Below, piece by piece: positions 1-23,123 of a stretch of 64,000 bases of DNA. Source of the stretch: Candidatus Kuenenia stuttgartensis (GTDB lineage Bacteria; Planctomycetota; Phycisphaerae; Phycisphaerales; SM1A02); assembly GCA_945902075.1 (NCBI GenBank), contig CAMDMA010000003.1:5022-69021 (forward strand), given 5' to 3'. How positions within the stretch are numbered: the stretch's first letter is position 1; every line of letters begins with the position of its first letter. The translations under genes and the position numbers were made by a program. The notes beneath the pieces are model-generated. The model did no database searches, had not been told where the DNA came from, and saw only the letters and a list, made by a program, of their open reading frames with translations.

Positions 1-650
1 GTTCCTATTTTGTCCTGTTTCCGGCGTCCGCCGGGATCATCGATTTCCGAGAGAGCTTCGCGTCTGGGGCGGCGAATTGGCGCAATTCAAACGGTGCATC
101 GATCTTGAACTGGTCTGCGGCAGGGGGGCCGGGTGGAGCTTCTTTCGTCACGAGCCTGTTCAATCTAAGCGCAACGACTGTCGGAGGATTTCCGCCGACC
201 GTAATCCGGGCGGCACAAAGTTACGGCTCGTCTGACGGTGCCTATGTGGGCAACTGGATCGCGGCTGGAGTCACCGGCGTGACCTTTCAGTTCCGACACA
301 ATCTCTCCGAATCAATCTCGGTGACGGGGCGCTTTGCGACGCCCGTGAATACACCAGGGGCGTCGGTGGTTTCAGCGGTCGTGGTGGCGCCGAACACCTG
401 GACCATGATTTCCTTCGACCTTCGCGAGGGAAGCTCCGACATTGTCTCACTCGGAGGAGGAACATATGCAGGCATTTTCTCAAACATCGGAAACATGCAG
501 TTCGGCTTCAGCGTTCCTGGAGCGCTTGCGGGCCAAAATATTGACGCCAGCTTCGACTTGACCGAATTCGCGATAGTTCCCGCGCCGGGCTCTTTCGCTT
601 TCTTCGGTCTTGCGGCGGTCTGCGGTACGCGTGGCCGTCGGCGGCATTGA
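1..650 (+). CDS. PEP-CTERM-type sorting-signal protein; 5' end lies outside the window
   Basis: The frame of ORF 105..650 stays open back to nt 3 with no in-frame stop, so the gene starts upstream. The C-terminus IVPAPGSFAFFGLAAVCGTRGRRRH is a PEP-like motif, a hydrophobic helix and an Arg cluster. Confidence 0.6.
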   Translation, partial: SYFVLFPASAGIIDFRESFASGAANWRNSNGASILNWSAAGGPGGASFVTSLFNLSATTVGGFPPTVIRAAQSYGSSDGAYVGNWIAAGVTGVTFQFRHNLSESISVTGRFATPVNTPGASVVSAVVVAPNTWTMISFDLREGSSDIVSLGGGTYAGIFSNIGNMQFGFSVPGALAGQNIDASFDLTEFAIVPAPGSFAFFGLAAVCGTRGRRRH

Positions 651-666
651 ACGGTGTTGACCGGAA

Positions 667-711
667 ATTCGGGACACGGAGATTCGGGACACGGAAATTC
701 GGGACAGGCAA
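667..711 (+). repeat. 3 x 15-bp tandem repeat (ATTCGGGACACGGAG / ATTCGGGACACGGAA / ATTCGGGACAGGCAA) ending in motif copy a
   Basis: Read directly from the sequence. The units are iterations of the 5' half of the 20-nt intergenic motif. Confidence 0.9.
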
Positions 712-715
712 GTAT
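696..715 (+). repeat. 20-nt intergenic motif, copy a
   Basis: AATTCGGGACAGGCAAGTAT. It lies between the convergent PEP-CTERM gene and the Y1-transposase gene. Confidence 0.85.
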
Positions 716-919: not shown

Positions 920-2143
920 CTAAGCTGCAACGTGCGAGAGTATTCCCCGCCATAGCCATCGCCTTCCGCGTCGACAGGCTTCTCGTCTCATGGATTCTTC
1001 CGAGCCGTAGCAGGATCCCCGTGATGACGGGAAATTTTTTGCTGTTGATATGGAGGGCACCGTGACGCGTCGCAGTTGTGCCTCAAGCGACCGAACGCGA
1101 ATAGGGTTTGGCCGCTGATCTACTCCAAGATTGTTGAGAATTCCGTCAAAGAGAACTCGAAGCGGGTCGGGCTCCCAACGGGGAATCCAGCCAGGCTTGT
1201 CGGGCCTTTGCCGTCGACCGTTTCTGTCGAGTAAGGCTAAGTAGGACGCGAGCGACGGAATCTCGCAGCCAGTTGCGAGGCCGGCGCTCACCTTTCGCTC
1301 AGTGGTCCCGCGTGGAGTTTGGACCTGTTGAAACTCGGTCAGTGGGGATATGCGACAGGGAAAGGCGGGCTCCCATGCAAATCTCGAGATCTTCCGTGCC
1401 AATTCTTCGGGGCCGCGATCCGTGGACTGCAGCATTTTTTCCACCAAGTTGTAGAGCCGACGCCACTGCCGTGATGCCGACGTCCATCGACTAGAGGAGA
1501 TTGAGGAAGCCACGCAAGCATGCACCTCGTTCAGTTCGACATACTGGGCGACTTGCAGAAGGCCTTGCATGTCGAGAACTTTAGGTGATTTGAACCGACC
1601 CTCCCAAAAGTGTCCCGTCACGTGTTCTTCTCGATTCCATGCGCGCGCACATGGTTCTTTGAGAAGGCGGTGAAATAGCCCAAGTGTGGAAAGCTCTCGT
1701 CGCGCACGACTGAGACGCGGCCGATCAAGCAGCATGCTTTCAATCTCGGTTTCTGACGGTTCCGCATCGCGAGGAACGCCGTGTTTTTTTCGCCAACGCT
1801 GGTTTGGAAGCAGAGCGGTCCTGCGCATCGCAACTTCACGATCAGTCCAACGAGCGACAATCTCAGGCCGAGTAGTGAGCAGTAAGTGGATGTGATTTCG
1901 CATGATCGCAAATGAGACAACATCGATAGCCATGAATTCCGAAAGAAACGCGAGGCGTGAGACAATCCACGCCCGCCGCTTCGGATCGTCGAGTAAGGAC
2001 GTCCGTCGGACACAGCGTGAAATGCAGTGGTAGGTGCCGGGGCTGTCGGCATCCACGATGTCGCATCGTCGTGTAGTCACACGCTGAACATAATCCCGGC
2101 GGCGAGCACTTCGCACCGTCAGACGAATCTCCCGCCATATCAT
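920..2143 (-). CDS. IS200/IS605-superfamily Y1 (HUH) transposase-like protein, RAYT-like, with a long C-terminal extension
   Basis: 407-aa ORF. It has GTYHCISRCVRR, the HUH motif in RNHIHLLL, GHFWEGRFKS, and the catalytic-Tyr region QYVELNEVHA (compare YIHxNPV). This layout is typical of COG1943/REP-associated tyrosine transposases. Only the first ~220 aa resemble that fold. Confidence 0.6.
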   Translation of the reverse strand: MIWREIRLTVRSARRRDYVQRVTTRRCDIVDADSPGTYHCISRCVRRTSLLDDPKRRAWIVSRLAFLSEFMAIDVVSFAIMRNHIHLLLTTRPEIVARWTDREVAMRRTALLPNQRWRKKHGVPRDAEPSETEIESMLLDRPRLSRARRELSTLGLFHRLLKEPCARAWNREEHVTGHFWEGRFKSPKVLDMQGLLQVAQYVELNEVHACVASSISSSRWTSASRQWRRLYNLVEKMLQSTDRGPEELARKISRFAWEPAFPCRISPLTEFQQVQTPRGTTERKVSAGLATGCEIPSLASYLALLDRNGRRQRPDKPGWIPRWEPDPLRVLFDGILNNLGVDQRPNPIRVRSLEAQLRRVTVPSISTAKNFPSSRGSCYGSEESMRREACRRGRRWLWRGILSHVAA

Positions 2144-2207
2144 TCGAAATTGCTCATCTCAGTCGCGCGCCGCAATCAAAAATCAGATTTCGGAAAATTA
2201 AGGGGAA

Positions 2208-2227
2208 AATCAAGGACAGGCAAGCAT
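2208..2227 (+). repeat. 20-nt intergenic motif, copy b
   Basis: AATCAAGGACAGGCAAGCAT. It is preceded by AATCAAA, AATCAGA and AAATTAAGG half-site-like iterations and sits 33 bp upstream of the ATG at 2260. Confidence 0.85.
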
Positions 2228-2259: not shown

Positions 2260-3741
2260 ATGCCCCCTCGAGAAACTCCTGCTTCCCGCATCGAACGGCT
2301 CCTTGCGGCGGGGGATCTCCATGGCGCGCTTCAGGCGGCCAATGAGTTGCTCGCACAATCGCCAAACAGCTTTCTCGGCCGCTTCGGACGGGCGCGAGCC
2401 AACTTGCGGCTTGGCGACGATCTCGAGGGAGTACGGGATCTCGACATCGCTGCGTCACTTGCGCCAAACGACGACCACCTTCGCTTCGTTCGCGCGAGAA
2501 TCGACTTTCGCAACGGTAAGACAGATGAGGCGATCGAGGTACTGAGTTCAGTTGTGCGAAGGCGCGGACCGCACGCCCTCGAAGCGTCATTCGCATTACT
2601 TGATGCCTATTTTTACGCGAATCGCGCAGAATCGCTAGCTGCGATGGTTGAAGCGGGTGGGCTCTGGGACAAAGACCCGCGCACCGCATTGCATGTTGCG
2701 CGCGTCCGTGCCATGAAAGATCGTGACGCGGGTATCGATGCACTGTTGTCGGTCTATCGCAGTGCACTTCCGGTCGCTGTGCGCCGGTTTGCGGGATTCG
2801 AAGCAGCCGGGTTGCTCGACAAGGCAGCCCGGTATCGCGAGGCATTTGATTTGATCTCAAATCTTCACGCGACGACGAGTGGTCCGATTGAGATTGAATC
2901 TTGGACGGCGCCACTTGCGGCGCAGGAAAGGGCGATCGAGAAGATCGCTGATAAGGTCAATGTCGGTTTGAAGCCACGCGGTGACTGTCAGCACGGGGTG
3001 GCCTTTGTTGTCGCACTTCCGCGTTCAGGCACAACACTGCTTGAGCACATGCTCGATCGGCATCCACAAATCGGCGGTATTGGCGAGTTTCGTGGACTGA
3101 ACACGATACAACACGCGCTCTCGTCCGCCGATGCATGGCCGTTTCGAGGAAACGCGGTTCCAAACTCCATCATTGACAGGCTTCGAAGTGGCTACATCTC
3201 CTCCGCGCGTCAGATCTGTAAGGACGGTGCCTCGTGGACTTTTGATAAGAGTTTGATGGCATGGCGGATGCTCCCGGAAATCTCCGTCTGTTTTCCCAGT
3301 GCGGTCTGTCTCGCAATCGACCGCGATCCACGGGACAACGCGACGAGCATCTTTCTCTCACATCTCAATCCCGCGACCCATCGATGGGTCGGCAGTTTTT
3401 CGGCAATCCGAGAAATCGTGTCGTGGCAGCGCAGGATTGTGCCTCGGACACTTGAGATCCTCGGCATTTCGCATGAGTCAATCATGTACGAAGACCTGAT
3501 TGAAGACCCCGCGAGGCATGCCACGCGTTGTCTTGCGCGTATGGGACTTCCTATGGACTCGCGCGTGCTATCGCCAGAGTCGTCGGAGAAGACGGCTGCC
3601 ACTCTCTCGCATGCACAGGTTCGACAGCCGATCAATCGGTCGTCGATCGGCCGGTGGAAGAACTATGCGTGGGCCTTCGATGGATCCTGGGACGAGCTCA
3701 CATCCGCGCATGAGGCAAGACTAGCCCTCAGTCGGGAGTGA
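2260..3741 (+). CDS. TPR-repeat / sulfotransferase-family protein
   Basis: 493 aa. The N-terminal half has TPR-like helical repeats. The C-terminal half carries the PAPS-binding 5'-PSB-like motif ALPRSGTTLLEHMLDRHPQI. Confidence 0.7.
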   Translation: MPPRETPASRIERLLAAGDLHGALQAANELLAQSPNSFLGRFGRARANLRLGDDLEGVRDLDIAASLAPNDDHLRFVRARIDFRNGKTDEAIEVLSSVVRRRGPHALEASFALLDAYFYANRAESLAAMVEAGGLWDKDPRTALHVARVRAMKDRDAGIDALLSVYRSALPVAVRRFAGFEAAGLLDKAARYREAFDLISNLHATTSGPIEIESWTAPLAAQERAIEKIADKVNVGLKPRGDCQHGVAFVVALPRSGTTLLEHMLDRHPQIGGIGEFRGLNTIQHALSSADAWPFRGNAVPNSIIDRLRSGYISSARQICKDGASWTFDKSLMAWRMLPEISVCFPSAVCLAIDRDPRDNATSIFLSHLNPATHRWVGSFSAIREIVSWQRRIVPRTLEILGISHESIMYEDLIEDPARHATRCLARMGLPMDSRVLSPESSEKTAATLSHAQVRQPINRSSIGRWKNYAWAFDGSWDELTSAHEARLALSRE

Positions 3742-3751
3742 GTTTGCAGTC

Positions 3752-3771
3752 AATCCGGGACAGGCATGCTT
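3752..3771 (+). repeat. 20-nt intergenic motif, copy c
   Basis: AATCCGGGACAGGCATGCTT, upstream of the ABC importer operon. Confidence 0.85.
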
Positions 3772-3871: not shown

Positions 3872-5986
3872 ATGCTGCATTCGCTGAGCCGACTCTTTCT
3901 AGGCATCATTCTGATCGTGCTCGCGGCAACTGCGCTCGTGTTAACCGATCGATCGGGGCTCGTGCGTTCCGCGCAACCAGGCGCCAGTGGCCCATCGCCT
4001 CGACGCATTGCTGTCATCCAAGTCTCATCTATCGACGCGTTAACAGAGGGACGGGTTAGCGCGATCGATCACCTAGCGAAGGCGGGGTACACAGCAGAAC
4101 TCGGATCCACGATCGACCTCTTTAATGCCGAGGGCGACATGGGCACACTGAATCAGATTTCGGCACAGGTCGCGGGTTCGGCCACGCCTTACGACCTTGT
4201 CATCACGCTTTCAACTCCTGCGACGCAGACTTTTCTCCGTGCCAACAAGCGCGCTATCCCACACGTGTTCGGTCTCGTCGCGTTCCCTCCTGCGATCGGT
4301 ATCCCCTTTGGTCCCTGGGTAGAGGGCTCTTCGCGACCGCAGCAGGTCGCGGGCTTCGGCACCATGCAACCGGTGCAACTCCTCTTCGAGTCGATGCTGG
4401 ATTGTGACCCGACGATCAAACGCGTAGGCGCCGTTTGGAATCCGGCTGAGCCTAATGCTGAAGCCTCGGTGAAGCTCGGCCGGGAAGTGTGCGCAAAACT
4501 CGGACTCGAACTTGTTGATGCGAATGGTGGCAATGTCAATGATGTCGTCTCTGCAGCAGATGTCGTGCTTTCCCGCGGAATCGACTGCTATTGGATTCTC
4601 GCGGATACCAACGTCATCGCGGCGGCGAAGCCTCTGATTGAGCGCTGTCGCAAGGCAGGCGTGCCTGTTGTGACAAACTTTCCACCGATGGCTGAGTTGG
4701 GTGCCGCGATCAACTTCGGCGCCGATTACAGCGCCATGGGAACTGCAACAGGCGCAACTGCCGAACTCGTTCTCGCAGGAATGCTCCCCCGCGAAATCCC
4801 ATGCGAGAATTTCGTCCCGGTGGCACTTCGCCTCAACACGGAGGGATTCGGTTCCAATTGGGCGCGTCCCTCCGCGCTGATCGCAAAAGCTGAGCGCGTC
4901 TATGGCGCTGACGGCAGGATTGCCGAGCAAGTCGTTGCAAAGGCGCTCATGCCGCCGAGTGTTGCTCAACTCATCGCGGCGCGGCAATCTTCATCGCCGC
5001 GTGGAACTCCTCGTGTCCCGGAGATCGCCGTGCTCACCTACAACCGCACACCGAACTTCGAAGAGGCCTATGCAGGCTTCCTTACCGAACTCACCCGACT
5101 CGGGTACGAGGATGGGCGAAATATCCGCATACGTCTCCGCGACGCGCAACTTGATGCTGGCACTCTCAACACAATCGTGGCTGCTATCGCGAGCGAGCGG
5201 CCTGATGTCGTGGTGCCGTTCACCACACCGGCGCTACAAGCGACCGCACGTCGCATCAAAGACATTCCTATCGTCTTCTCGCTCGTCGCATCGGCATCGG
5301 CAGCTGGTGCCGGTAAATCAAATACGGATCACGAACCGAACATCACGGGCGTGCAGACAACGCTCGATGGACCCGGCATGATTCGGGTCGTGCATGCGGT
5401 GCTGCCTCATTTGCGTCGTGCGGGCACGGTCTTCGCGCCAAGTGAGGCAAACAGTGTTTTCTTCCGCGATCGCTTTACCGGTTTACTGAAGGATGTCGGT
5501 ATCGAATTGGTCGCGGCGGGCGCGGATCGAGTGACGGAGCTTCCAGAGGCGGCTGACAGTCTTGGAGCGAAGGGTGTCACAGCGATTCTGCAGATCGCAG
5601 ACAACGCATCCGCAACGGGCTTCCCGACCATCGTCCGAAGCGCGGATCGCGCCAATCTTCCAGTTTTTGCCTTCACTCCAGGTGCGATGAAGTCGGGGGC
5701 CACTCTCGCGGTTGCGCTTGATTATGCCGACCTCGGCGCGCTCAGTGCCGGATTACTCGATCGTGTGCTCCGCGGTGAGTCAACAGCGACGATTCCGTTC
5801 ATCGATCCGAAGGACTCAATCCTCTGGGTGAATCCTGCGCGCATGAAGCGTTTTGGACTCACGATGCCAGAGGCGATGCTGAAAACTGCACGAATTACCG
5901 ATGCGGATGGAAACTGGTCGCCGCCCACGCCTGACGATGAGGTACGTCCGGCAGCGCGAATGGCTGAAAAAGAGGCGATGCCATGA
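3872..5986 (+). CDS. ABC transporter substrate-binding protein with a tandemly duplicated ABC_sub_bind (PF04392-like) domain
   Basis: The ORF opens at TTG 3830, but ATG 3872 directly precedes a TM/signal helix (LFLGIILIVLAATALVL). Two homologous halves are visible: IAVIQ..GY..DLVITLSTPATQ..IPHVFGLVA and IAVLT..GY..DVVVPFTTPALQ..IPIVFSLVA. Confidence 0.7.
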   Translation: MLHSLSRLFLGIILIVLAATALVLTDRSGLVRSAQPGASGPSPRRIAVIQVSSIDALTEGRVSAIDHLAKAGYTAELGSTIDLFNAEGDMGTLNQISAQVAGSATPYDLVITLSTPATQTFLRANKRAIPHVFGLVAFPPAIGIPFGPWVEGSSRPQQVAGFGTMQPVQLLFESMLDCDPTIKRVGAVWNPAEPNAEASVKLGREVCAKLGLELVDANGGNVNDVVSAADVVLSRGIDCYWILADTNVIAAAKPLIERCRKAGVPVVTNFPPMAELGAAINFGADYSAMGTATGATAELVLAGMLPREIPCENFVPVALRLNTEGFGSNWARPSALIAKAERVYGADGRIAEQVVAKALMPPSVAQLIAARQSSSPRGTPRVPEIAVLTYNRTPNFEEAYAGFLTELTRLGYEDGRNIRIRLRDAQLDAGTLNTIVAAIASERPDVVVPFTTPALQATARRIKDIPIVFSLVASASAAGAGKSNTDHEPNITGVQTTLDGPGMIRVVHAVLPHLRRAGTVFAPSEANSVFFRDRFTGLLKDVGIELVAAGADRVTELPEAADSLGAKGVTAILQIADNASATGFPTIVRSADRANLPVFAFTPGAMKSGATLAVALDYADLGALSAGLLDRVLRGESTATIPFIDPKDSILWVNPARMKRFGLTMPEAMLKTARITDADGNWSPPTPDDEVRPAARMAEKEAMP

Positions 5987-6067
5987 TTCGTGATTTCATG
6001 ATTCATGATGTCATGATTCGTGCGGTCCTCATTCATGCGGTCCTCATTCATGCGGTCCTCATTCATG
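5986..6067 (+). repeat. 15-bp periodic array, about 5.5 units, in the spacer between the SBP and STAS genes
   Basis: Units are ATTCGTGATTTCATG, ATTCATGATGTCATG, ATTCGTGCGGTCCTC, ATTCATGCGGTCCTC, ATTCATGCGGTCCTC and ATTCATG. The array starts at the last base of the SBP stop codon. Confidence 0.9.
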
Positions 6068-6119: not shown

Positions 6120-7289
6120 ATGAACATCGAAAGAACCATGACCGCCAGCGGCGTCAATCTTGCGTTTGTTGGTCGTCTCGATGCAGCATGGTCTGAGCCA
6201 GCAGCGCGCGCGCTTGAAGAGGCGATTCGCTCTGGCCGCTCGCGCATAGACCTTGATTTATCACAGGTCGACTTCATTTCGTCCGTTGGTATTGGGGTTC
6301 TGCTGCAAGCAATGACCCGATTTCGGAAAGTGGGCGGTGCGCTGACAGTCACCGCCTCAAGCACAGGTGTGCGCGAGATGCTGCGAGTGGCCAAACTCGA
6401 GTCGCTGCTTGTGGCCCCGTTATCCAAGCCGACAGAGGCCGGGAGCAGCACGTTGATCGGAAGCGGGTGGACGGGAGAGATTCGGTCGATTTCCAACTCG
6501 AAGCAAAGTCGGTCAGCTCGTGTCATAGACGAGGGCTTGCTGCGAGTGACGCCGAATCTTGTCGCCCTCGGACACCTCGCGCTCGCGGGTGATATCACCT
6601 CGGCACGCGGGCTCTTCGGCGAGGGACTCGTCGCAGGCGGCACCGTTGTGGTCTCGCCCGCGGAGGCGCCACGCCCCGACTATCTCGCCTCAAGCGACGC
6701 GGGGAGTGTCTCATGTATCGCGCGTGATGCACTCGTCGTCGATGCGCCGCCCGATCTCCGGGGACACTTTGAGTGGAATGAGCGCGAGCCGATCATGGTG
6801 CATGATCTTGCGGGAGCACTCGTCGAGGCGGCCGATGCGCCGATTTGCTTCGTCGCGATCGGCGAGTGCGCCGGAGCATTCGGTGCATGGGCGCGCACAT
6901 CCCCCGATTGCTGGCCGCGTCCGCTCACGGCGATGTCCGATGATGAGCTCCGCATGTCACTGCGCTTCGCGGGCGAACCTATGCATATTGGTGATTCTGT
7001 CGTTGCCGTAGGATTTGCGGCGAATGATGCCACGATGGTCGGACTTTCGTCAGCAGTAGCCGACCGGCTCGTGACTGTTGGCAAAGTACGTCTCCACGCG
7101 CACGTCGCAGTGACCTCATATCGCCCCGTCCCTCGATCGACTACGGACATCGGAACCGCGGGAGTACTACTTTCTGAGCAGCCGCTGCGCGTCGTAATGC
7201 ATGCTCTGCGCGCGCAGGGAAATATGGAGACTGCGTTCCGTCGAGGAACGGTGTGGGCGATTGCTCTTAGCGAAGGAGTTCGTCGATGA
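6120..7289 (+). CDS. STAS-domain protein with an uncharacterised ~280-aa C-terminal domain
   Basis: The N-terminal ~100 aa (RLDAAWSEPAARALEEAI..IDLDLSQVDFISSVGIGVLLQA..GGALTV..REMLRVAKL) fit the anti-sigma antagonist/STAS fold. The stop overlaps the permease start (ATGA at 7286-7289). Confidence 0.6.
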   Translation: MNIERTMTASGVNLAFVGRLDAAWSEPAARALEEAIRSGRSRIDLDLSQVDFISSVGIGVLLQAMTRFRKVGGALTVTASSTGVREMLRVAKLESLLVAPLSKPTEAGSSTLIGSGWTGEIRSISNSKQSRSARVIDEGLLRVTPNLVALGHLALAGDITSARGLFGEGLVAGGTVVVSPAEAPRPDYLASSDAGSVSCIARDALVVDAPPDLRGHFEWNEREPIMVHDLAGALVEAADAPICFVAIGECAGAFGAWARTSPDCWPRPLTAMSDDELRMSLRFAGEPMHIGDSVVAVGFAANDATMVGLSSAVADRLVTVGKVRLHAHVAVTSYRPVPRSTTDIGTAGVLLSEQPLRVVMHALRAQGNMETAFRRGTVWAIALSEGVRR

Positions 7290-8224: not shown

Positions 8225-9023
8225 ATCAGTTCGGAAAACATTCAACCCTGGCACCGCGAATGAGGTCCGCGCGCTAGCGGGACTTGACCTCAACCTTGCA
8301 CCAGGCTCGTTCACGGTCGTGATCGGGACGAACGGTTCGGGTAAGAGCACTCTTCAAGGAGCGATCTCCGGGGTCTTCGCGATCGATGCAGGGCGTATTG
8401 AAGTCGATGGGATCGATGTCACGTCGTGGCCCGAGTTCCGTCGATCGCACCTCATTGGGCGGGTGTTCCAAGACCCCTTCGCGGGAACGGCACCCGAACT
8501 CACCGTCGCGGAGAATCTTGCGCTCGCCTCCAAGCGTGGGCACTGGCGTACGCTTGCCCCGCTGCTTCGGGGTGCGAGGCGTGGCGAATGGCGCGATTTG
8601 TTGGCGCAGATTGGTCTGGGTCTTGAGAACCGACTCGATGACCCTATTGGACTCTTGTCGGGCGGGCAGCGTCAATCAATCACGCTGCTAATGGCGACAC
8701 TCACGAATCCAAAGATTCTGATGCTCGACGAGCACACCGCCGCGCTGGATCCGAGGAGTGCCGAGTTGGTGATCGGACTCACAACCCGTCTGGTCGCACG
8801 ATCGAGTTCAACAACATTGATGGTGACTCACTCGATGCAGCAGGCAGCGTCGCTCGGTGATCGGTTGATCGCCATGCACCGGGGGCGGATTTACCTCGAC
8901 GTTTCTGGCAGCGAGAAGCGCAAACTGACGGAGAACGAACTATTTGGCATGTTCAGCCATATGCGTCGAGATGACCGATTTGACGAGGCTGCCTGCGAGC
9001 TTGTGCGGAGCCAGTATCTGTAG
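8211..9023 (+). CDS. ABC transporter ATP-binding protein
   Basis: Walker A GTNGSGKST, signature LSGGQRQ and Walker B LMLDEHTAALD. ATG 8211 (MLRLESVRKTF) overlaps the permease stop. The longer ORF from 8160 is probably a 5' over-extension. Confidence 0.85.
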   Translation: MLRLESVRKTFNPGTANEVRALAGLDLNLAPGSFTVVIGTNGSGKSTLQGAISGVFAIDAGRIEVDGIDVTSWPEFRRSHLIGRVFQDPFAGTAPELTVAENLALASKRGHWRTLAPLLRGARRGEWRDLLAQIGLGLENRLDDPIGLLSGGQRQSITLLMATLTNPKILMLDEHTAALDPRSAELVIGLTTRLVARSSSTTLMVTHSMQQAASLGDRLIAMHRGRIYLDVSGSEKRKLTENELFGMFSHMRRDDRFDEAACELVRSQYL

Positions 9024-9032
9024 GCAGTAGGC

Positions 9033-9052
9033 AATCCGGGACAGGCATGCAT
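9033..9052 (+). repeat. 20-nt intergenic motif, copy d
   Basis: AATCCGGGACAGGCATGCAT. The 19-mer CAATCCGGGACAGGCATGC (9032-9050) is identical to 3751-3769. Confidence 0.85.
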
Positions 9053-9333
9053 TTCAGCTTGAGCTGGATGCTTAGTACGCGACCACCACTGCCACCACCT
9101 CAGCCAATACCAAGTCTGCCGTCACATCTCAGTGGAACTCGCTGGGGCGTCGCCCCTCGCTCACTGTTTGGACATTCTCGCAATAGCACTGCGGTTCCGT
9201 CGGTCTGCGCGATAGTTGGGATCACACGCCGACGAGCCCGCGCATCGACCCAGTTATCTCGAGGGAGGCGGTTTGGTTAGACCGCCTCTGTTTGCGGTGA
9301 GCGTGTCGCCGACGAACCTAGAGAGGCTGACGA

Positions 9334-9353
9334 ATGCATGCCTGTCCTTGATT
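9334..9353 (-). repeat. 20-nt intergenic motif, copy e
   Basis: The minus strand reads AATCAAGGACAGGCATGCAT. Confidence 0.85.
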
Positions 9354-9541
9354 GGTCTCTTGATTGGTCTTTCGATTGGTCGGAAGTCGGGGAGGTGGGA
9401 AGCGCGCAGCCCCCGGATCCAAAGATCCCGGCAAATTGAATCGCACTGCCGCGGGTAGCGCGGGTAATCTCTCTCCTTCGTCCAGAACATCTTTGCGATT
9501 GGCACCGCAGAAACGCCACCGCCGACCTCCCAGGACCCGTC

Positions 9542-10702
9542 ATGAAGATCCTCCATGTGACTGAATCGCTCAGGCTTGTCGACGGGGGAGTGGCACGCGC
9601 GCTTCATGACCTCATCTCCGTCATGGATCAGCGTGGGCACCGATCGATGCTCCTCACGCACGGTACTCCTGATCTTCCCGCACACTGGGCGGCCGATTGC
9701 ATCGACAGGGTTCATCAGTTCGACGGCTTCCCCATCGCGCGCAAAGGGCCACTTCTCCGCGATAGAGCGCGTCTTCTCGCCCTTATGCAGCGGGTTGACA
9801 TGGTGCATATCCATCAGCCGTGGCACCCGTTCCTCGTCCAAGTCGCGACCCTTTGTCGAAAGGCGGGAACCCCGTACTGCGTCAGTCTCCACGGCTGCTT
9901 AGACGATTGGCCGATGTCGCAGAAGGCTTTGAAAAAACGAGTTAGTATCGCGCTCGTCGGTCGTCGAATGCTTGAGTCTGCGGCTTTCGTTCACTGCACA
10001 GCCACCGACGAAGTTCGACAGTCGATCAAGTGGTTCCCGCGCGGTCGGACTGTGGTGGTTCCGTGCACCATGGACCTGCGCGTCTACCGACAACTGCCCG
10101 AACCAGAGCTCGCCCGCGAAAAGTTTAACTTGAATCGTCCGGGCGACATGCTTCTTTACATCAGCCGCATTCATCCGAAGAAGGGTCTGATTCACCTGAT
10201 TCGCGCACTTCCGAGGATTCGTGAGCAATACCCAGCGTGGCTTTGCGTCGCGGGGCCACGGGAAGACGCTGGGTACGCGAGTCTTGTTGACGACGAAATT
10301 CGCCGACTTGGTCTCCAAGAGTCAGTGAAGTTCGTGGGGAATGTCAGCGATCCGACGCTCAAGGCCTCTCTCTACAGCGCAGCGAGAGCATCAGTTTTGC
10401 CGACGAGCCAAGAGAATTTCGGATTCGTTTTATTCGAGTCGCTCGCATGCGGCACGCCGCTTGTAACCACGGATTTGGTTGATACCTGGCGAGAGTTGAA
10501 GGAGCATGGCGGCGCCTTCATCGCGTCCCAAAACCCTGAGACGGTCGCGAGGGAAGTACTTCGCGTGCTCAGTCTCTCGGAGGCAGAGCGGTTTGCACTC
10601 AGTGAAAGGGCACGAAAATGGGTGCTGGGCTACTTAGACGAGCGCGCCATCGGCAAGCAGATGGAGCAGGCTTATGAAGCGGCGTGTGACCAGCGCATCT
10701 AA
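9542..10702 (+). CDS. Glycosyltransferase, GT4 (GT-B fold) family
   Basis: 386 aa. It starts MKILHVTESL..GGVARAL and carries the C-terminal EX7E-type motif region ENFGFVLFESLACGTPLVTTD. Confidence 0.8.
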   Translation: MKILHVTESLRLVDGGVARALHDLISVMDQRGHRSMLLTHGTPDLPAHWAADCIDRVHQFDGFPIARKGPLLRDRARLLALMQRVDMVHIHQPWHPFLVQVATLCRKAGTPYCVSLHGCLDDWPMSQKALKKRVSIALVGRRMLESAAFVHCTATDEVRQSIKWFPRGRTVVVPCTMDLRVYRQLPEPELAREKFNLNRPGDMLLYISRIHPKKGLIHLIRALPRIREQYPAWLCVAGPREDAGYASLVDDEIRRLGLQESVKFVGNVSDPTLKASLYSAARASVLPTSQENFGFVLFESLACGTPLVTTDLVDTWRELKEHGGAFIASQNPETVAREVLRVLSLSEAERFALSERARKWVLGYLDERAIGKQMEQAYEAACDQRI

Positions 10703-10741
10703 TCTCAGTTATCTGATCTGGTACGCATCTGATCTGGGACT

Positions 10742-10761
10742 GATCTGGGACAGGCATGCAT
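10742..10761 (+). repeat. 20-nt intergenic motif, copy f
   Basis: GATCTGGGACAGGCATGCAT. Confidence 0.85.
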
Positions 10762-11009
10762 CTCGTCTCTCCGCGGGGTACGGCCAGCATCACCTCTTGC
10801 GGGCCTGAATAGGCAGCTAGTTCCAAGCGCATTCACGGGGTCAACTCTCCACGAACGGTGAGAAGACATTTTGCTAGTCAAACTGCGGTTCTGTCGGCCT
10901 GCGCAACATCAGACGCCCGACGCCGGACATCACCCGTTCAAAGTGCTGCAAATGTCCACGCTGAGCGTGTCGCCGACAATCGGGGATGCATGAGAGAAAG
11001 CATGAGAGA

Positions 11010-11029
11010 AAGCATGCCTGTCCTCGATT
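11010..11029 (-). repeat. 20-nt intergenic motif, copy g
   Basis: The minus strand reads AATCGAGGACAGGCATGCTT. Confidence 0.85.
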
Positions 11030-11059
11030 GACTTTCGATTGGCTCTCGATTGGCGCGCC

Positions 11060-11776
11060 TCAATCGAGGAATCGCACCGCGCCCGTCTCCACGTCATACA
11101 TCGCCCCGACGACTTGCAGGTTGCCGTCAGCAACAGCCTTCGTCAGGATGTCACTACGCTTGACGAGCTCAGCTGCCTGCCAACGAACATTTGCGATCTC
11201 GGCGTCCGTGGTGCTTACGCGGCCATCCGCGCCCTTCGGTGCATTGGCGAGTGCGGGTCGGATTGCCGCCACAAACGACGACATCCTGCCGGGCAACTCT
11301 TTGCCTTCAACAGTCGCATTGACTGCGCCACACTTCGTATGTCCAAGCACGACGATCGTGTGCACCCCAAGGGCGGCGACGCCGTATTCAAAGGTACCGA
11401 TGCCGACATCATTCTGAAAGTTGCCCGCGATACGGACCACAAACAGGGATCCCACTCCCTGATCAAAGATGAGCTCGGGTGGAGTGCGTGAGTCTGCACA
11501 TGTCAAAATCCCGACCGATGGAGTTTGGCCATCCCGACCCGTCTTCGCGATCCGCTCGTGCAGCCAGTCGTGTGTTCGGACATCACCCGACAAGTAGCGA
11601 TCATTGCCATCTTTGAGTGCCTGCATCGCCATCTTTGGCTCGATACCGGTTGAAAGCGCACGGCCACTTTCGGGCGAGTTGGTCGAAACGCAGGCGGTGA
11701 AACTGAGCGAAAGCGCAAGAGTAACGGCAGTGCGGAAGATTGAAATCATTGTGGAACTAGAATAACGGTTTTTCAC
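11060..11776 (-). CDS. Beta-class carbonic anhydrase, exported (lipoprotein-like signal peptide)
   Basis: 238 aa. It has an N-terminal signal with SLSFTAC, Zn ligand motifs CADSRTPPE and GHTKCGAV, and FVVRIAGN. Confidence 0.8.
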   Translation of the reverse strand: MKNRYSSSTMISIFRTAVTLALSLSFTACVSTNSPESGRALSTGIEPKMAMQALKDGNDRYLSGDVRTHDWLHERIAKTGRDGQTPSVGILTCADSRTPPELIFDQGVGSLFVVRIAGNFQNDVGIGTFEYGVAALGVHTIVVLGHTKCGAVNATVEGKELPGRMSSFVAAIRPALANAPKGADGRVSTTDAEIANVRWQAAELVKRSDILTKAVADGNLQVVGAMYDVETGAVRFLD

Positions 11777-12732: not shown

Positions 12733-12759
12733 ACTCCAGCAATTTCTTGCTGACCTCAA

Positions 12760-12833
12760 TGGGCGATATAGGATTCGAACCTACGACCCCACGCGTGTGA
12801 TGCGTGTGCTCTAGCCAACTGAGCTAATCGCCC
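12760..12833 (-). tRNA. tRNA-Val (anticodon CAC)
   Basis: Hand-folded 74-nt cloverleaf. The acceptor is GGGCGAT/ATCGCCC, the anticodon stem is CACGC/GCGTG with loop ATCACAC, and the T-loop is TTCGAAT. CCA is not encoded. Confidence 0.9.
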
Positions 12834-13173: not shown

Positions 13174-14103
13174 TCATTTCTCGGGGACGGCGGTGGCATC
13201 CAATCTTGCGAGCCACTCGCGAGCGCGTTTTCGGAGATCAGCTTGCATGGCTGGTTCAATCTTGTCTGCAACCCGTTCGAGAATCTTTTCGGCGTTTGCG
13301 GCGACCGACGCGTCGCCAGTAATTCGTGCGAGGGTTGCCCAGAGAAAGCCCTCCTCGTAGTTGCGGGCGACGCCCTTTCCTTTGCAGGAAAGAAGCGCGA
13401 AGTTCAGCATGCCCTCTGCACTTCCAGCCTCTGCTGCCTTCCGATACCACACCGCAGCCATTGCTTCATCGCGTGTGATGCCTTTACCGTGGCTCAATGC
13501 GTAGCCGAGGTTCGACATCGCCGCCGTGTTTCCGCGATCAGCGGCCAGTTGATACCAACGAACGGCTTCACTATCACTTTTCGGCAGGCCTTTCCCCTGG
13601 CCTGCGAGCGATCCGAGGTTGAACATGGCCGTTGCACTTCCAGCATCAGCCGCGCGGCGATACCAAGTAACGGCGTCGGGCTCGCTCTTCGGTACTCCGC
13701 GTCCTGCGCTGTACATGAGGCCAAGGTTTGACATCGCGTCGGCATCGCCGGCCTCAGCAGCCTTTCGGTAGAGCTCGGCAGCCCGTACATCGTCGGTTGG
13801 TACGCCCTTCCCATTCGCGAGTAGGAAGCCGAGATGTGTCATCGCTTTGACATGTCCGACTTGTACGGCCTTCGTGTACCACTCGGCGGCAGTCACGTGG
13901 TCGACCTTGGCGTCTGCTACGAGACCAAGTTTGTACATCGCTTCGGCGTTTCCAGACTCTGCCGCGCGTTCAAGTTCGGCCTGAGTTTCAGCTGTTTTCA
14001 TCGGCGAAACATGCTCAGATTGCGCGTCAGCGATCGGTGGCAGCGGGAGGAACAGCGCGGTGGGTAGCGCGAGATATGTGAGAACGAGTGCGGCGGTTTT
14101 CAT
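13174..14103 (-). CDS. Sel1-repeat (TPR-like) secreted protein
   Basis: ATG 14103 gives MKTAALVLTYLALPTALFLPLPPIADA, a signal peptide. At least 7 Sel1 units of the form A..Y.KAA.AG.A.AM.NLG..Y..G.GV.. follow. The ORF-track start at 14289 is an over-extension. Confidence 0.75.
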   Translation of the reverse strand: MKTAALVLTYLALPTALFLPLPPIADAQSEHVSPMKTAETQAELERAAESGNAEAMYKLGLVADAKVDHVTAAEWYTKAVQVGHVKAMTHLGFLLANGKGVPTDDVRAAELYRKAAEAGDADAMSNLGLMYSAGRGVPKSEPDAVTWYRRAADAGSATAMFNLGSLAGQGKGLPKSDSEAVRWYQLAADRGNTAAMSNLGYALSHGKGITRDEAMAAVWYRKAAEAGSAEGMLNFALLSCKGKGVARNYEEGFLWATLARITGDASVAANAEKILERVADKIEPAMQADLRKRAREWLARLDATAVPEK

Positions 14104-14122
14104 AGTGGCACGAGTATCGATT

Positions 14123-14965
14123 TCAATGCGTGATGTTCTGTTGATCCATTGGAAGTGATGCTCCACGTATTGAAGCAGGAACAAGCACCACGGCGAAACG
14201 ATACACGAGCGAATGACCGATCCACGCAACGCGAAGTCCGGCACGCGCCGCAAGCGCATCGATCTCTGCACGAGTAAACCCGGCCTCAACGCTTACACGG
14301 GCATCATGTCGAGTGGATATCGATGCAAACATGGTTGCTACTCGCACCGCGATGTTTTGCGCCGCGCCGCGCTTCAAATCATTCCAGATCACCGCACGCC
14401 TCGCCGCGCGCGACATCTCAGTCAACGCTGCAACCACACGCTCGTCCGAAAAATGATGAAGCGTGAGCGATGCGTGGACGAAGTCAAACGCCTGCACACC
14501 GAATTGTGCGGTGAGAGTGAAGATGTCACCAGTTTCGAAGCGTGCTCGGCTCGACGTGCCTTGAAAGGAGACCTGAGCGCGCGCGATCATCTCCGGGCGT
14601 CGGTCAATGCCGATGACATCAAGAGAAGGCTTCGCATCAGCAAGTGCGCGCGCGATATCGCCGCTCCCAGTACCGACATCCGCGAGCGACTGCTTCATAT
14701 GCGGATCGGCGGGTGGGCTCCGATTTGCAGTCTGGCTCGCGGCATGAACCGCTCGGATTGAGAGCGCGGTTCCGCCGAATGTGCGGTTGATCGCGCGGAG
14801 ATAACCGAGTTCACGGTCGAGCGCTTCGCCGCCGCAGCTCGCTTGATCGAGGTACTCGTCAGAGAGCAGTCGTTGGGTCCAGGGCTGTGGGCGTCGCCGA
14901 TAGGGCTCAAAAACAATCGAGGACGCGGCGCGCGCGTCCTCGGTGTGGTTTTGATCTGGATCCAT
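14123..14965 (-). CDS. Class I SAM-dependent methyltransferase
   Basis: 280 aa with motif I DVGTGSGDIARALA, followed by an acidic post-I residue and a Rossmann-like pattern. Confidence 0.7.
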   Translation of the reverse strand: MDPDQNHTEDARAASSIVFEPYRRRPQPWTQRLLSDEYLDQASCGGEALDRELGYLRAINRTFGGTALSIRAVHAASQTANRSPPADPHMKQSLADVGTGSGDIARALADAKPSLDVIGIDRRPEMIARAQVSFQGTSSRARFETGDIFTLTAQFGVQAFDFVHASLTLHHFSDERVVAALTEMSRAARRAVIWNDLKRGAAQNIAVRVATMFASISTRHDARVSVEAGFTRAEIDALAARAGLRVAWIGHSLVYRFAVVLVPASIRGASLPMDQQNITH

Positions 14966-14973
14966 CGAGCGTC

Positions 14974-15249
14974 TCAGTGCGTCTGAGAGCGCTCTTGGGT
15001 GTTTTCGGGGGTTCGGATCGGCTGCTCAGGCGGAAGTGCCCGGCGAGATTGCCCGTCGTCCTTTTGGACTTCGTCACCCACATCCTTCAGTCCCTTTTTG
15101 AACTCGCGGATGCCAACTCCCATCGACTTGCCAACTTCAGGGAGGCGTCGACCGAACAACAGGAGGGCAATGATGAGGATGACCGCCCACTCCATCATGC
15201 CGAGATTGCCGATGAAAGCGATGAGCGAGGTTGAGGTGAGCGAGGTCAT
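14974..15249 (-). CDS. tatA: Twin-arginine translocase subunit TatA/E
   Basis: A TM helix plus amphipathic helix: WAVILIIALLLFGRRLPEVGKSMGVGIREFKKGLKD. The true start may be the internal MMEW (about 15198). Confidence 0.7.
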   Translation of the reverse strand: MTSLTSTSLIAFIGNLGMMEWAVILIIALLLFGRRLPEVGKSMGVGIREFKKGLKDVGDEVQKDDGQSRRALPPEQPIRTPENTQERSQTH

Positions 15250-15390
15250 GCAGTTTGCTCCTTGAAAGCCGAGTATACCCAGCCCGCGCCGCTTTCAAGC
15301 GGCCCATGCTGCCAAGCACCAGATTTGCTCAGTGATGCCCGCGACGTTCTCTGCTGCAAAGTCCGGGATCTTTCCGATATCGCTCCCACT

Positions 15391-16698: not shown

Positions 16699-16754
16699 GC
16701 ATCGACGCAGAGTCACGGCGAATACGATCAAACTGTGTATTTACGCGGCGTGCG

Positions 16755-20545: not shown

Positions 20546-20565
20546 AATCTAGGACAGGCATGCAT
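20546..20565 (+). repeat. 20-nt intergenic motif, copy h
   Basis: AATCTAGGACAGGCATGCAT, 25 bp from the proC start codon in the proC/accA divergent spacer. Confidence 0.85.
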
Positions 20566-20628
20566 CGGACATGTATCGGGCATGACTCGTCTCGTGGTTG
20601 GTAACGGTTGGTAAGAATCGGGGACAAG

Positions 20629-20648
20629 AATCTGGGACAGGCAAGCAT
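20629..20648 (+). repeat. 20-nt intergenic motif, copy i
   Basis: AATCTGGGACAGGCAAGCAT, preceded by the half copy AATCGGGGACAAG and 27 bp upstream of the accA ATG. Confidence 0.85.
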
Positions 20649-20674: not shown

Positions 20675-21670
20675 ATGCCCCGACCTGGCTACAGCCCGCT
20701 CTACCAACTCGATTTTGAGAACCCAGTCCTTGATATCGAGCGTCAAATCGACGCGATTGAGGAGCGCCCAGATGCCGAGCGTTACGCCGACGAGCTCGCT
20801 CAACTCAACGCGACTCGGGAGAGCCTGCTTCAGAAGGTCTACTCCGGCTTGACCCCTTGGCAGACCGTCCGCATCGCCCGCCACCCACTTCGTCCCCAGA
20901 CATACGACTACATGTCGATGATTTGCCGCGACTTCTGCGAATTGCATGGCGACCGAGCTTTCGGTGATGATTCCGCAATCGTGACGGGCTTCGCGCGCAT
21001 TGGCTCCGTGAAGTGCATGTTCATCGGTCACAACAAGGGAAAGACAGTCGCCGAAAAGGTTGCTGCAAACTTCGGCTGTGCGCACCCCGAGGGTTATCGC
21101 AAAGCACTTTTGAAGATGAAGCTCGCTGAAAAGCTTGGGCTGCCGATCGTCACGCTTGTCGATACTCCCGGTGCATATCCCGGCATCGGAAGTGAGCAGC
21201 GCGGACAGGCTCAGGCGATCGCAATCAATTTGCTTGAAATGAGCCGGCTGCGCACGCCAATCGTTTCCGTCGTCATTGGTGAAGGTGGCTCGGGGGGTGC
21301 GCTTGGGATCGCCGTCGCTGACCGAGTCGCGATGCTTGAACACGCTTGGTACTCGGTGATCTCGCCCGAAGGTTGCGCGGCCATCCTGTGGAAGGAGGCC
21401 AACGAGCAGACCAACAATCGAGCCGCGGAGTGCCTCGCCTTGACCGCACGCCGAAATCTTGAGAATGGGCTTGTCGACGAGGTCATTCCCGAGCCTCTCG
21501 GCGGAGCTCATCGAGATCCACGCAAGGCTGCTGACGCGCTGCAGACGTGGATTGTCGATCGACTTCGAGATCTCGCGAGGCTCAACCCAGATACCTTGGT
21601 TCGTCAGCGGTTTGAGAAGTTCCGCAAGATGGGCGCTTTCCGTGACGAGATGGCCGCTGTAACCACCTGA
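20675..21670 (+). CDS. accA: Acetyl-CoA carboxylase carboxyltransferase alpha subunit
   Basis: LDFENPV..IARHPLRPQTYDY..LVDTPGAYPGIGSEQRGQAQAIA..VIGEGGSGGALG. Confidence 0.9.
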   Translation: MPRPGYSPLYQLDFENPVLDIERQIDAIEERPDAERYADELAQLNATRESLLQKVYSGLTPWQTVRIARHPLRPQTYDYMSMICRDFCELHGDRAFGDDSAIVTGFARIGSVKCMFIGHNKGKTVAEKVAANFGCAHPEGYRKALLKMKLAEKLGLPIVTLVDTPGAYPGIGSEQRGQAQAIAINLLEMSRLRTPIVSVVIGEGGSGGALGIAVADRVAMLEHAWYSVISPEGCAAILWKEANEQTNNRAAECLALTARRNLENGLVDEVIPEPLGGAHRDPRKAADALQTWIVDRLRDLARLNPDTLVRQRFEKFRKMGAFRDEMAAVTT

Positions 21671-21818
21671 ATTGACGGATATCCGCTCTTTTCCCCGTAC
21701 GAATCGCCTTCGATGCCTTTGACGCTTCGTTCGGTCCTTGCTACGCTCTAGCCCCCTCAGGCTCAGATCGCGCTGTAGACGCGTCGGCCGTTTGAAGAGA
21801 GAGAGATCCTTCTTGGCG

Positions 21819-23123
21819 ATGAAGAAAGACCCGACGAAGGGCGCGGCGAAAGCCGTGACCAAGGCGAAGGCTCCCCCGAAGTCTCTCCCGACGGCCCCCG
21901 CGAAAGCACCCGCGAAAGCCGGCGCGAAAGTTGTCGCGAAGGCCCAGCCACCGGCAAAGGCGGCAGCAAAGGCTGTTGTCAAATCGCCGCCTTCCAAATC
22001 GCCGCCTTCCAAGTCGCCGCCTTCCAAGTCGCCGCCTTCCAAATCGCCGCCTTCCAAGTCGCCGCCTTCCAAGTCGCCGCCCTCTAAGTCGCCGCCCTCC
22101 AAGTCGCCGCCCTCCAAGTCACCGCCTTTGAGGTCAGCGAAGCAAGCTGTCGCGACTTCGAAGTCAACATCAAATGGTGTGACCAAGTCTGGATCCGCAT
22201 CCAACGCGAAGACGGTCCCCGTTGCGAAGCCAGCAGCGGGCGCGGCAGTTAAGAAGGTGAATGGTCCGTCGGTATCCAACGACGTTGCGGCTGGAAATCC
22301 ATCTAAGAACGGCAATGGCGCCTCGCTTAAGTCCACCGCCTCGAAATCATCTGAGTCGAAAGCGACGACATTGAAGTCTCTATCGCCGGCAGCGTCGTCC
22401 AAGCCCGCGGCAGCGTCGTCCAAGCCCGCGGCAGCGTCGGCCACACCCACGGCAGCGGCCACCAAGCCTGCGGCCACCAAGGGCGCTGCCGCAACCAAGC
22501 CCGGGCCACTCGACACGCCGATCGTGCCGAAGAAGGGTCCCATCGATCTCGCGCAGCACAAGTCTGTCGCCGCAGCCGCAGCCGCCGTCGCGCATGCGCG
22601 CGGTGGGGACTCAGGCGAATTCATCATCATCAACGGACGTCGTGTGCGCGCGATCTCGACGAGTAGCATCACACTGCCGAAAAAGACGAAGAATTCCGCA
22701 GCGGAAGCGCCGCCACCGCCGACTGAGCAACAGATCGCGTCGATCAAGACGAAGATGCCGAAGAAGGAACTCGACGAGTATCGCGAGTTGCTTCGTGCAA
22801 AGCGTCGTCAACTTGTTGGCATGCTGAATGGCATGGAAGATGAAGCGCTTCGATCTTCGGGCGGAAATCTCTCCAATATGCCGGTCCACATGGCCGACAT
22901 GGGCTCAGATGTTTACGAGCAGGATTTCACGCTTGGGATGGCTGAGACGGAGAGGTTGATCCTCGACGAGATCGACGCTGCGCTCCAACGCATTGAAGAT
23001 AAGACCTTTGGTGTCTGCCAGATGACAGGGAAGCCCATCTCAAAGGCTCGCCTCGATGCCAAGCCTTGGGCGAAGTTTACGATCGAGGCCGAGCGCATCT
23101 CTGAGGCCAGCGGCGGACGCTGA
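21819..23123 (+). CDS. DksA/TraR-family protein with a Lys/Ala/Pro-rich histone-H1-like N-terminal tail
   Basis: ATG 21819 (MKKDPTKGAAKAV). About 300 aa are low-complexity (KAPAKAGAK.., 10 x KSPPS, PAASSK repeats). The C-terminal ~130 aa are DksA-like (ELDEYRELLRAKRRQL..DEIDAALQRIEDKTFGVCQMTGKPISKARLDAKPWAKFTIEAE). Only one of the four usual zinc-finger Cys residues is present. Confidence 0.65.
   Translation: MKKDPTKGAAKAVTKAKAPPKSLPTAPAKAPAKAGAKVVAKAQPPAKAAAKAVVKSPPSKSPPSKSPPSKSPPSKSPPSKSPPSKSPPSKSPPSKSPPSKSPPLRSAKQAVATSKSTSNGVTKSGSASNAKTVPVAKPAAGAAVKKVNGPSVSNDVAAGNPSKNGNGASLKSTASKSSESKATTLKSLSPAASSKPAAASSKPAAASATPTAAATKPAATKGAAATKPGPLDTPIVPKKGPIDLAQHKSVAAAAAAVAHARGGDSGEFIIINGRRVRAISTSSITLPKKTKNSAAEAPPPPTEQQIASIKTKMPKKELDEYRELLRAKRRQLVGMLNGMEDEALRSSGGNLSNMPVHMADMGSDVYEQDFTLGMAETERLILDEIDAALQRIEDKTFGVCQMTGKPISKARLDAKPWAKFTIEAERISEASGGR
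21980..22129 (+). repeat. 10 x 15-bp in-frame tandem repeat (AARTCGCCGCCYTCY) encoding (KSPPS)n
   Basis: Read directly: 9 near-identical units plus one degenerate unit. A second 21-bp x ~2.5 repeat (GCAGCGTCGTCCAAGCCCGCG) lies near 22390-22440. Confidence 0.9.

Follow-up and report, generated by a model that had tools for sequence, protein, structure and literature searches.

Nearly all that is known about systems formed by repetitive extragenic palindromic (REP) sequences and REP-associated tyrosine transposases (RAYTs) comes from Proteobacteria, where the substrate of the enzyme is a palindromic REP, and a RAYT gene together with its dispersed repeats is referred to as a REPtron. Here we describe a related arrangement in a bacterium of the Phycisphaerae. 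The DNA analysed is a stretch of 64,000 nt from contig CAMDMA010000003.1 (the window; positions refer to it unless another contig is named). It contains the gene of a divergent RAYT-like protein of the HUH-Y1 type, a short intergenic repeat clustered around this gene, and two compound elements, E1 and E2, which carry the repeat at both ends and flank a glycosyltransferase (GT) gene. The best explanation of these features is that the repeat (a GGACAGGCATG core with AATCNR-type units before it) is the cognate DNA element of the RAYT-like enzyme, the two forming a REPtron-like variant. E1 and E2 are probably inverted doublets of this RAYT-associated repeat, with right halves that are shared through local duplication.

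Inverted doublets of a RAYT-associated repeat are known from Pseudomonas fluorescens SBW25, where it was proposed that such REPINs are non-autonomous and depend on a single-copy RAYT acting in trans (PMC3116915). REPINs are 71–110 bp long, form one full-length hairpin and occur in hundreds of near-identical copies (PMC3116915). Quentin et al. 2018 (PMC6006769) described Y1 families with non-canonical flanking repeats, namely TnpAY1 subclass 2.6 and class 3 with their “atypical” flanking structures, one class occurring mainly in Planctomycetes. In full-text literature searches we found no paper linking RAYT or REPIN with Phycisphaerae. Systems of this kind are known, while the half-palindrome form of its repeat appears to be undescribed in the literature searched.

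The repeat and the RAYT-like gene

A motif search of the window gave nine matches at up to two mismatches, compared to 0.38 expected from shuffled sequences. Four of them form the arms of E1 and E2, three matching GGACAGGCATGCAT without mismatch (9039(+), 9334(-) and 10748(+)) and the fourth with one mismatch (11010(-)). The five further copies (702, 2214, 3758, 20552 and 20635) are all on the + strand and all intergenic. Once the copies are aligned in the same orientation, every one is found to be preceded on its 5' side by one to three AATCNR(GGAC) units at a spacing of 11–16 nt. The features of the region are:

664..715, + strand: motif copy GGACAGGCAAGTAT with three 15-nt iterations GGAAATTCGGGACAC before it, in the 3' flank of the RAYT-like gene
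920..2143, - strand: gene of the RAYT-like HUH-Y1 protein (407 aa), with NHIH (aa 83-86), GHFWEGRF (aa 177-184) and Y201-VELN
2176..2227, + strand: motif copy GGACAGGCAAGCAT with AAAATCAA-type iterations, between the starts of the RAYT-like gene and of the TPR-sulfotransferase gene 2260..3741
3752..3771, + strand: a lone motif copy, AATCCGGGACAGGCATGCTT, in the spacer that separates the sulfotransferase gene from that of an ABC substrate-binding protein
9029..9053, + strand: E1 left arm with a motif copy, 10 nt past the stop codon of the ABC ATPase gene
9054..9333, no strand: E1 interior, non-coding; 9171-9313 homologous to E2 (blocks 9188-9210 and 9298-9313)
9333..9383, - strand: E1 right arm, a motif copy and three 12-nt units CTTGATTGGTCT
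9542..10702, + strand: GT4 glycosyltransferase gene, between E1 and E2
10711..10761, + strand: E2 left side, three GATCTGG(GAC) iterations, then a motif copy at the end
10762..11009, no strand: E2 interior, non-coding; 10865-10977 homologous to E1
from 10988: GCATGAGAGAAA tandem array in E2, continuing into the right-arm motif
11010..11053, - strand: E2 right arm, a motif copy and three 11-nt TCGATTGR units
20546..20648, + strand: motif copies at 20552 and 20635 in direct orientation, with AATC iterations, in the spacer of the divergent pyrroline-5-carboxylate reductase gene and accA

A third inverted pair, E3, is located about 3 kb to the left of the window, on a contig that reaches about 9 kb further left. 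It lies between a TPR-sulfotransferase and a deoxyhypusine synthase gene, and its interior of 131 nt is unrelated to those of E1 and E2. The DNA read for the species amounts to 73 kb and holds 11 motif copies, all of them intergenic. Their distribution is uneven: the motif occurs in 6 of the 13 spacers of the first 21 kb compared to none of about 22 crude-called spacers beyond (Fisher p ~0.001), and 21–64 kb of the window has no copy at all. In an alignment of 73 copies the GGACAGGCATG core is conserved and the 5' side is AAT-rich. We also noted that the cumulative GC skew climbs steadily over the window (1-64000), with all five singleton copies on the G-rich (+) strand (p=0.06), which would be the lagging-strand template for Y1 enzymes.

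The RAYT-like gene sits in the middle of this motif cluster, 7 kb from E1 and E2. Its product matches the Pfam family Y1_Tnp above the cutoff (4.6e-06, 27.2 bits, cutoff 23) and the NCBIfam family REP_Tyr_transpos below the curated cutoff (4.9e-08, 33 bits, cutoff 80). Single-sequence and profile searches against PDB sequences were marginal (E=0.4-0.9), pointing to 4ER8 and ISDra2 TnpA, so that a comparison of folds was needed to settle the matter. In a Foldseek search the AlphaFold model (pLDDT 82.6, pTM 0.84) has its best PDB match in 4ER8, the E. coli RAYT with its REP hairpin (E=2e-4, target-normalised TM 0.61), followed by ISDra2 and IS608 TnpA. The predicted fold is that of a Y1 enzyme and the catalytic motifs are intact. 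Among 20 homologues, the most distant at 32% identity, the residues N83, H84, H86, G177, W180, R183, Y201, L204 and N205 are conserved.

Several homologues carry the JGI label “REP element-mobilizing transposase RayT”. The exact protein is encoded on 23 of the contigs read, in a single gene neighbourhood throughout, which is the single-copy behaviour of RAYTs and not that of an insertion sequence; no tnpB was seen among the called genes adjoining it. About 200 extra C-terminal residues are conserved across the family, and this long-form family is large, with 1374 cluster representatives in a profile search at E<=1e-30 (6750 at E<=1e-10). Two TPR-sulfotransferase paralogues, which are 58% identical, bracket the gene (window 2260-3741(+) and, immediately beyond the left end of the window, L063 12417-13883).

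The association between gene and repeat can be followed beyond the species at four homologue loci from Phycisphaerae-type contigs, which together with the window make five loci (percentages are protein identities):

L069 (46%): three tandem (+) copies of GGGGACAGGCATG upstream; two (-) copies downstream
L073 (46%): (+), (+) and (-) copies upstream; a (-) copy downstream
L092 (43%): variant GGGACAGGCAC upstream; GTGCCTGTCA downstream
L093 (35%): TGGACACACCC twice upstream; GGGTGTGTCCA twice downstream

The repeat is present on both sides of the RAYT-like gene in five out of five cases, and it is inverted in the four loci listed. Moreover, its sequence drifts along with the divergence of the protein, the core being GGACAGGCATG at 100% and 46% identity, GGGACAGGCAC at 43% and TGGACACACCC at 35%. 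A repeat on both sides of the gene that drifts with the protein is the REPtron signature of RAYTs (PMC6006769; PMC3116915).

Copies of the motif on other contigs take several forms. A Planctomycetota contig from a metagenome-assembled genome of Lake Zurich (L056, 240-545) has a tandem array of seven copies with a period of 43–44 nt; by eye, a short GGCC...GGCC hairpin follows each motif in these units. A scan of JGI metagenomes for inverted pairs 228–288 nt apart returned 14 loci, none of which has an interior homologous to those of E1 and E2. Convergent arrays occur at three independent loci of high GC (L074/75/77/87, L084 and L085), where 3–8 (+) copies are followed by a unique centre of 100–140 nt and then by 3–4 (-) copies; no RAYT homologue was found within the 3.2–10.3 kb examined per locus. 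One of these arrays (L084) lies directly upstream of a TPR-sulfotransferase gene whose product is 53% identical to that of the neighbour of E3, in the same relative position. Apart from the contig described next, the remaining pair matches are long palindromes in other taxa, likely matching by chance. Scans of viral contigs gave four matches unlinked to the system (at least three of them in unrelated repeats) and no RAYT homologue.

One metagenome contig of 33% GC (L081) connects the motif to a canonical REP. At 1322-1997 it encodes a canonical RAYT of 168 aa, flanked and interrupted by the GTAG-tagged REP GGTAGGGGACAGGCATGCCTGTCCCCTAC, and the in-frame REP insertion encodes GDRHACP, an arrangement of the subclass 2.4 type. 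This REP contains GGGGACAGGCATG as its full stem, with a 13-mer arm common to the Phycisphaerae motif, which therefore corresponds to the 5' arm and centre of what is a textbook REP stem elsewhere. The identical string GGGGACAGGCATG thus flanks a RAYT gene in both settings. In L081, however, it makes up one arm and the centre of a 22-nt palindrome, which is perfect and has GTAG/CTAC feet, whereas the window copies are half-sites only, and the two proteins align at the HuH motif only.

Compared with the REP/BIME (bacterial interspersed mosaic element) and RAYT (TnpA-REP) REPtron of E. coli (4ER8; PMC6006769), the system shares a HUH-Y1 gene in a single context with 4ER8 as its best structural match, and a short gene-flanking repeat that is also found in other spacers, often as inverted pairs, and that changes with the protein. 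It differs in the size of the protein, which has 407 aa compared to 165 aa, with an insertion of about 90 aa between the HuH and Tyr motifs and a C-terminal extension of about 200 aa, and in a repeat copy number that looks low and local. The WE and YV[DE]LN signatures also occur in subclass 2.3 (PMC6006769), whose proteins are likewise long (mean 325 aa), but that subclass was reported to lack REPs and to have several copies per genome. Class 3 (PMC6006769) has a Y----Q motif and a CnGA foot, whereas the present family has Y---N(E/P/A); the comparison with these classes is one of signatures. The Y1 fold and the lack of target-site duplications are also common to IS200/IS605 elements, which differ in that the present gene has a single context and its motif copies lack subterminal hairpins.

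The compound elements E1 and E2

A preliminary description of the window had proposed that E1 and E2 share one architecture of inverted motif arms around interiors of 281 and 248 nt, respectively, and all of its coordinates hold. The interiors were said to share a 23-mer (21/23 identical) and a 16-mer (16/16); both are collinear in E1 and E2 and found nowhere else in the window. A local alignment of the interiors scores 36, compared to 17.9 +/- 2.1 in dinucleotide shuffles (0/1000 reached 36) and to a maximum of 34 among about 1000 random window segments. When the interiors are split at the GACATT block, the right parts (about 160 nt) align with z=15.6 and the left parts with z=-0.3, which bears out the claim that the right two-thirds are homologous while the left thirds are not alignable. 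Over aligned columns the identity is about 64%. The two-element pattern is real and not due to chance.

Terminal inverted repeats are present in both elements, with arms of 22 nt in E1 (91% complementary) and 17 nt in E2 (88%), and the outermost arms of the pair (9029-9053 and 11009-11033) are 84% complementary to each other. The three TYGATTGR iterations reported for each right-hand arm were found (9348/9360/9372 in E1, 11024/11035/11046 in E2), but the right ends are not alone in having them. These iterations are the AATCNR(GGAC) units that precede every motif copy, read on the opposite strand, and the left side of E2 likewise has three units, in the GATCTGG form. The right arm of E2 ends 6 nt from the stop codon of a convergent carbonic anhydrase gene (11060..11776). 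As had been described, the GT4 gene is the sole gene between the elements, with its stop 9 nt from 10711; its product has the Pfam domains Glycos_transf_1 (8.4e-29) and Glyco_transf_4 (2.6e-17).

The interiors show no sign of coding capacity. Six-frame translation of E1 and E2 gave stops in every frame, no shared open reading frame (ORF) and no continuous protein alignment, and a 44-aa ORF that a gene caller had placed across the GT stop is unsupported. Rfam models matched only two tRNAs in the window at gathering thresholds, and 8950-11150 remained empty even at E<=1. When folded as single-stranded DNA, the terminal arms pair in both elements, whereas the interiors stay unpaired and are not self-complementary. 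The folding z-score is -3.2 for E1, with the arms and one 8-bp hairpin included, and -1.3 for E2, no better than shuffles. This GC-rich hairpin (9265-9288), already noted in the preliminary description, is present in E1, where TGTTTG follows it, and is deleted in E2. A scan of 8900-11200 found neither a sigma-70-type promoter nor an intrinsic terminator consensus. A candidate sigma-54 promoter was rejected by eye, its GG..GC spacing being 9 nt instead of the canonical 10 nt.

Strain-level variation was assessed on 16 contigs that encode the identical GT or RAYT-like protein. E1, the GT gene and E2 are present in all 16, so these contigs show no presence/absence polymorphism, nor the variable GT gene with breakpoints in the elements for which the preliminary description had suggested a test. 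The strains differ only in the number of tandem units (12–15 nt) and in a single 34-bp duplication. The CTTGATTGGTCT units at the right arm of E1 vary by one 12-nt unit, the GCATGAGAGAAA array in E2 has from 2 to at least 6 copies, and the GGAAATTCGGGACAC and AAAATCAA-type units beside the RAYT-like gene also vary in number. In strain L009 a 34-bp tandem duplication includes the left arm of E1 and results in a second tandem motif. Scaffold gaps (N) coincide exactly with the variable arrays, including the right arm of E1 in some scaffolds. The changes in unit number and the 34-bp duplication show how the arrays of other species can grow.

Two arrays of similar appearance lack the motif. At 5977-6067, between the genes of the ABC substrate-binding protein and of a STAS-domain protein, there are tandem 15-nt units CATGATTCGT.. 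and ATTCATGCGGTCCTC; a small ORF at this position has 36 or 46 aa or is uncalled, depending on the strain, which suggests variation in unit number that is unrelated to the motif. The other is an intergenic array (55773-55858) of the 18-nt unit GGACAATCGGTCTGGGCT, with about 3.4 copies and decayed units, which resembles the AATCGG/TCTGGG iteration units but has no GGACAGGCATG core.

A larger strain difference was seen outside E1 and E2. Strain L002 has an insertion of about 3.7 kb (L002 ~13240-16970) at the end of a tRNA gene (12760-12833, - strand) that is not associated with the motif. It encodes a trehalose-6-phosphate synthase (Glyco_transf_20) and a trehalose phosphatase, and a directly duplicated 27-bp sequence (window 12754-12780), which overlaps the tRNA gene, marks its two ends.

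Weighing of the explanations

We conclude that the repeat has the behaviour expected of a RAYT-type enzyme's cognate element, and we infer that the enzyme would bind and cleave it. In single-stranded DNA, a (+) copy and a nearby (-) copy could anneal to a stem of 17–22 bp, while a lone copy would form no hairpin. If such pairing of arms takes place in vivo, the Y1 nuclease may recognise the annealed stem, cut and rejoin it, and over evolutionary time this mobility would have seeded copies, inverted doublets and convergent arrays into the intergenic DNA around the gene. One such seeding event, or an ordinary local duplication, may have copied a segment of about 200 nt with the (-) arm across the GT gene, giving rise to the shared right halves of E1 and E2. 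The 11–16-nt units beside the motif would then change rapidly in copy number by slippage. The elements resemble the REPINs of P. fluorescens SBW25 (PMC3116915) in being extragenic inverted doublets of a RAYT-associated repeat with arms better conserved than the spacer.

Several observations weigh against this explanation. The defining feature of a REP is lacking, since single copies are not palindromic (10 of the 11 fold like shuffles, with local single-stranded DNA z-scores of -1.05 to +1.21) and the alignment of 73 copies has no conserved GTAG or CGTC foot. The arms are 131–285 nt apart, with interiors that are not self-complementary and, save for the right halves of E1 and E2, unrelated between sites, unlike the partner arms of E. 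coli REPs and the REPINs of 71–110 bp. Because of these departures (no hairpin, no foot, distant arms), we do not count the repeat among REPs proper. No second site with the E1/E2 interior was found in the loci searched, and only the right halves are homologous. As a whole, the doublet is not demonstrably a replicating unit. All copies known in the species, from the 73 kb read, fall in a stretch of about 24 kb. When the GTDB species representatives, a set that apparently lacks the host species, were scanned with AATCNNGGACAGGCAWGCWT, a prefix that proved too strict, the result was 41 scattered singletons, of which only the Lake Zurich array was informative. The copies that flank the RAYT-like gene in the window (702 and 2214) are direct, on the same strand and not inverted; we treat this as a local rearrangement, yet it is a discrepancy. 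The motif-free arrays indicate that unit variation needs no special enzyme, and suggest that ordinary slippage is enough to account for it. Finally, several copies are situated 26–100 nt upstream of gene starts and are also compatible with a regulatory site.

The strongest alternative, although an unlikely one, is a cis-regulatory role of the motif together with its helically phased iterations, which would be bound either by a transcription factor or by a domesticated RAYT-like protein. The targets would be envelope genes (sulfotransferases, GT, ABC transporter) and accA, E1 and E2 would act as compound operators or insulators, and the number of units as an expression switch. Three single copies indeed aim into a nearby gene, at distances of 32 nt (sulfotransferase 2260), 26 nt (from the end of copy 20635 to the ATG of accA) and about 100 nt (substrate-binding protein). 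The iterations recur every 11–12 nt, their numbers are hypervariable between strains, the C-terminal extension of the protein is conserved across its family, and the convergent array of L084 has the position of E3 upstream of a TPR-sulfotransferase in another organism. However, copies are also found in 3'-3' convergent spacers where there is nothing to regulate (702, E2 and the L056 array), and no sigma-70-like promoter was detected around E1 and E2. A host regulon would predict neither the inverted motif flanks of RAYT homologues nor the drift of the motif with the protein.

More speculative, and in our view improbable, is the idea that the enzyme acts on a “split REP”, that is on arrays of half-sites whose complementary arms are hundreds to thousands of bases apart, with the DNA between convergent arms being excisable or copyable. 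If true, this would be a gene-cassette system of a Y1 nuclease, with the spacer of 130–290 nt, the RAYT gene itself, or the GT gene between 9029-9053 and 11009-11033 as the mobile unit. It would explain the new context of the GT gene and the cassette-like gene blocks in the 24-kb region that are parted by motif copies.

The GT gene has changed its context in the lineage. Its closest relatives (86, 78, 76 and 53% identity) are found in other gene contexts with short spacers and without the motif; for the first three, the flanking spacers measure 68–123 nt. Relatives of the carbonic anhydrase gene likewise occur in unrelated contexts. With so little conserved synteny in this group, an empty site cannot be defined, which makes the altered surroundings of the GT gene weak evidence for a cassette.

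Slightly less probable still is that E1 and E2 are two copies of a miniature inverted-repeat transposable element (MITE), or the ends of a composite transposon that delivered the GT gene, as the preliminary description had proposed. Part of that proposal stands: the elements are non-coding, bounded by inverted repeats as MITEs are, partly homologous and in direct orientation; their termini recur on both sides of a gene of a transposase family at a distance of 7 kb, which makes them similar, broadly speaking, to a non-autonomous element, and the outermost arms and the GT relatives in other surroundings would fit a composite. The specifics do not stand. There are two copies only, with unrelated left thirds, and searches of the window, of 83 other loci and of the 14 JGI metagenome loci with motif pairs gave no additional copy of the interior, quite unlike the multi-copy family with a common interior that characterises MITEs. 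No target-site duplications were found, no direct repeat abutting the arms of E1 or E2, and the GT gene, E1 and E2 are present in all 16 strain-level contigs. Single copies, tandem arrays and a third pair with an unrelated interior carry this terminal motif as well. The GC content is flat at 0.56–0.61 across the region, for which reason a horizontally acquired island was rejected as well. Origin of a MITE through internal deletion of the RAYT locus was also rejected: the interiors resemble neither the RAYT flanks of three species at the DNA level nor, by blastx, any of 20 family proteins.

Least probable of all is that E1 and E2 are duplicated genes of small or structured non-coding RNAs with the 23-mer and the 16-mer as functional segments, an option that the preliminary description had raised together with large hairpins: two collinear blocks conserved far above background with diverged sequence between them, the E1 hairpin followed by TGTTTG and the lack of a conserved ORF would suit it, but Rfam is empty even at E<=1, only the terminal arms pair, E2 folds like shuffles, the E1 hairpin is deleted in E2, promoter and terminator consensus sequences were not found, and none of the other loci examined has the two blocks.

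Two observations on neighbouring genes may be added. The ABC transporter operon (PF04392 substrate-binding protein, permease, ATPase) includes, at 6120-7289, the gene of a 389-aa protein with a STAS domain at its N terminus, a composition that we found unusual. An ORF at 21738..23123, downstream of accA (20675..21670), contains in-frame-looking arrays at 21980-22128 (15 nt x 9.9) and 22387-22509 (21 nt x 4.2) and probably encodes a repeat-containing protein.

Biological implications

The findings tie the Phycisphaerae members of a large long-form Y1 family to a half-palindrome repeat that also occurs in convergent arrays. For annotation, this accounts for several oversized, assembly-breaking intergenic spacers without invoking new genes. 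If the association between enzyme and repeat is functional, it would widen the range of possible RAYT substrates and offer biochemistry a concrete and testable 11-mer. It would also supply a marker of rapidly evolving intergenic sites in freshwater planctomycetes that are uncultured.

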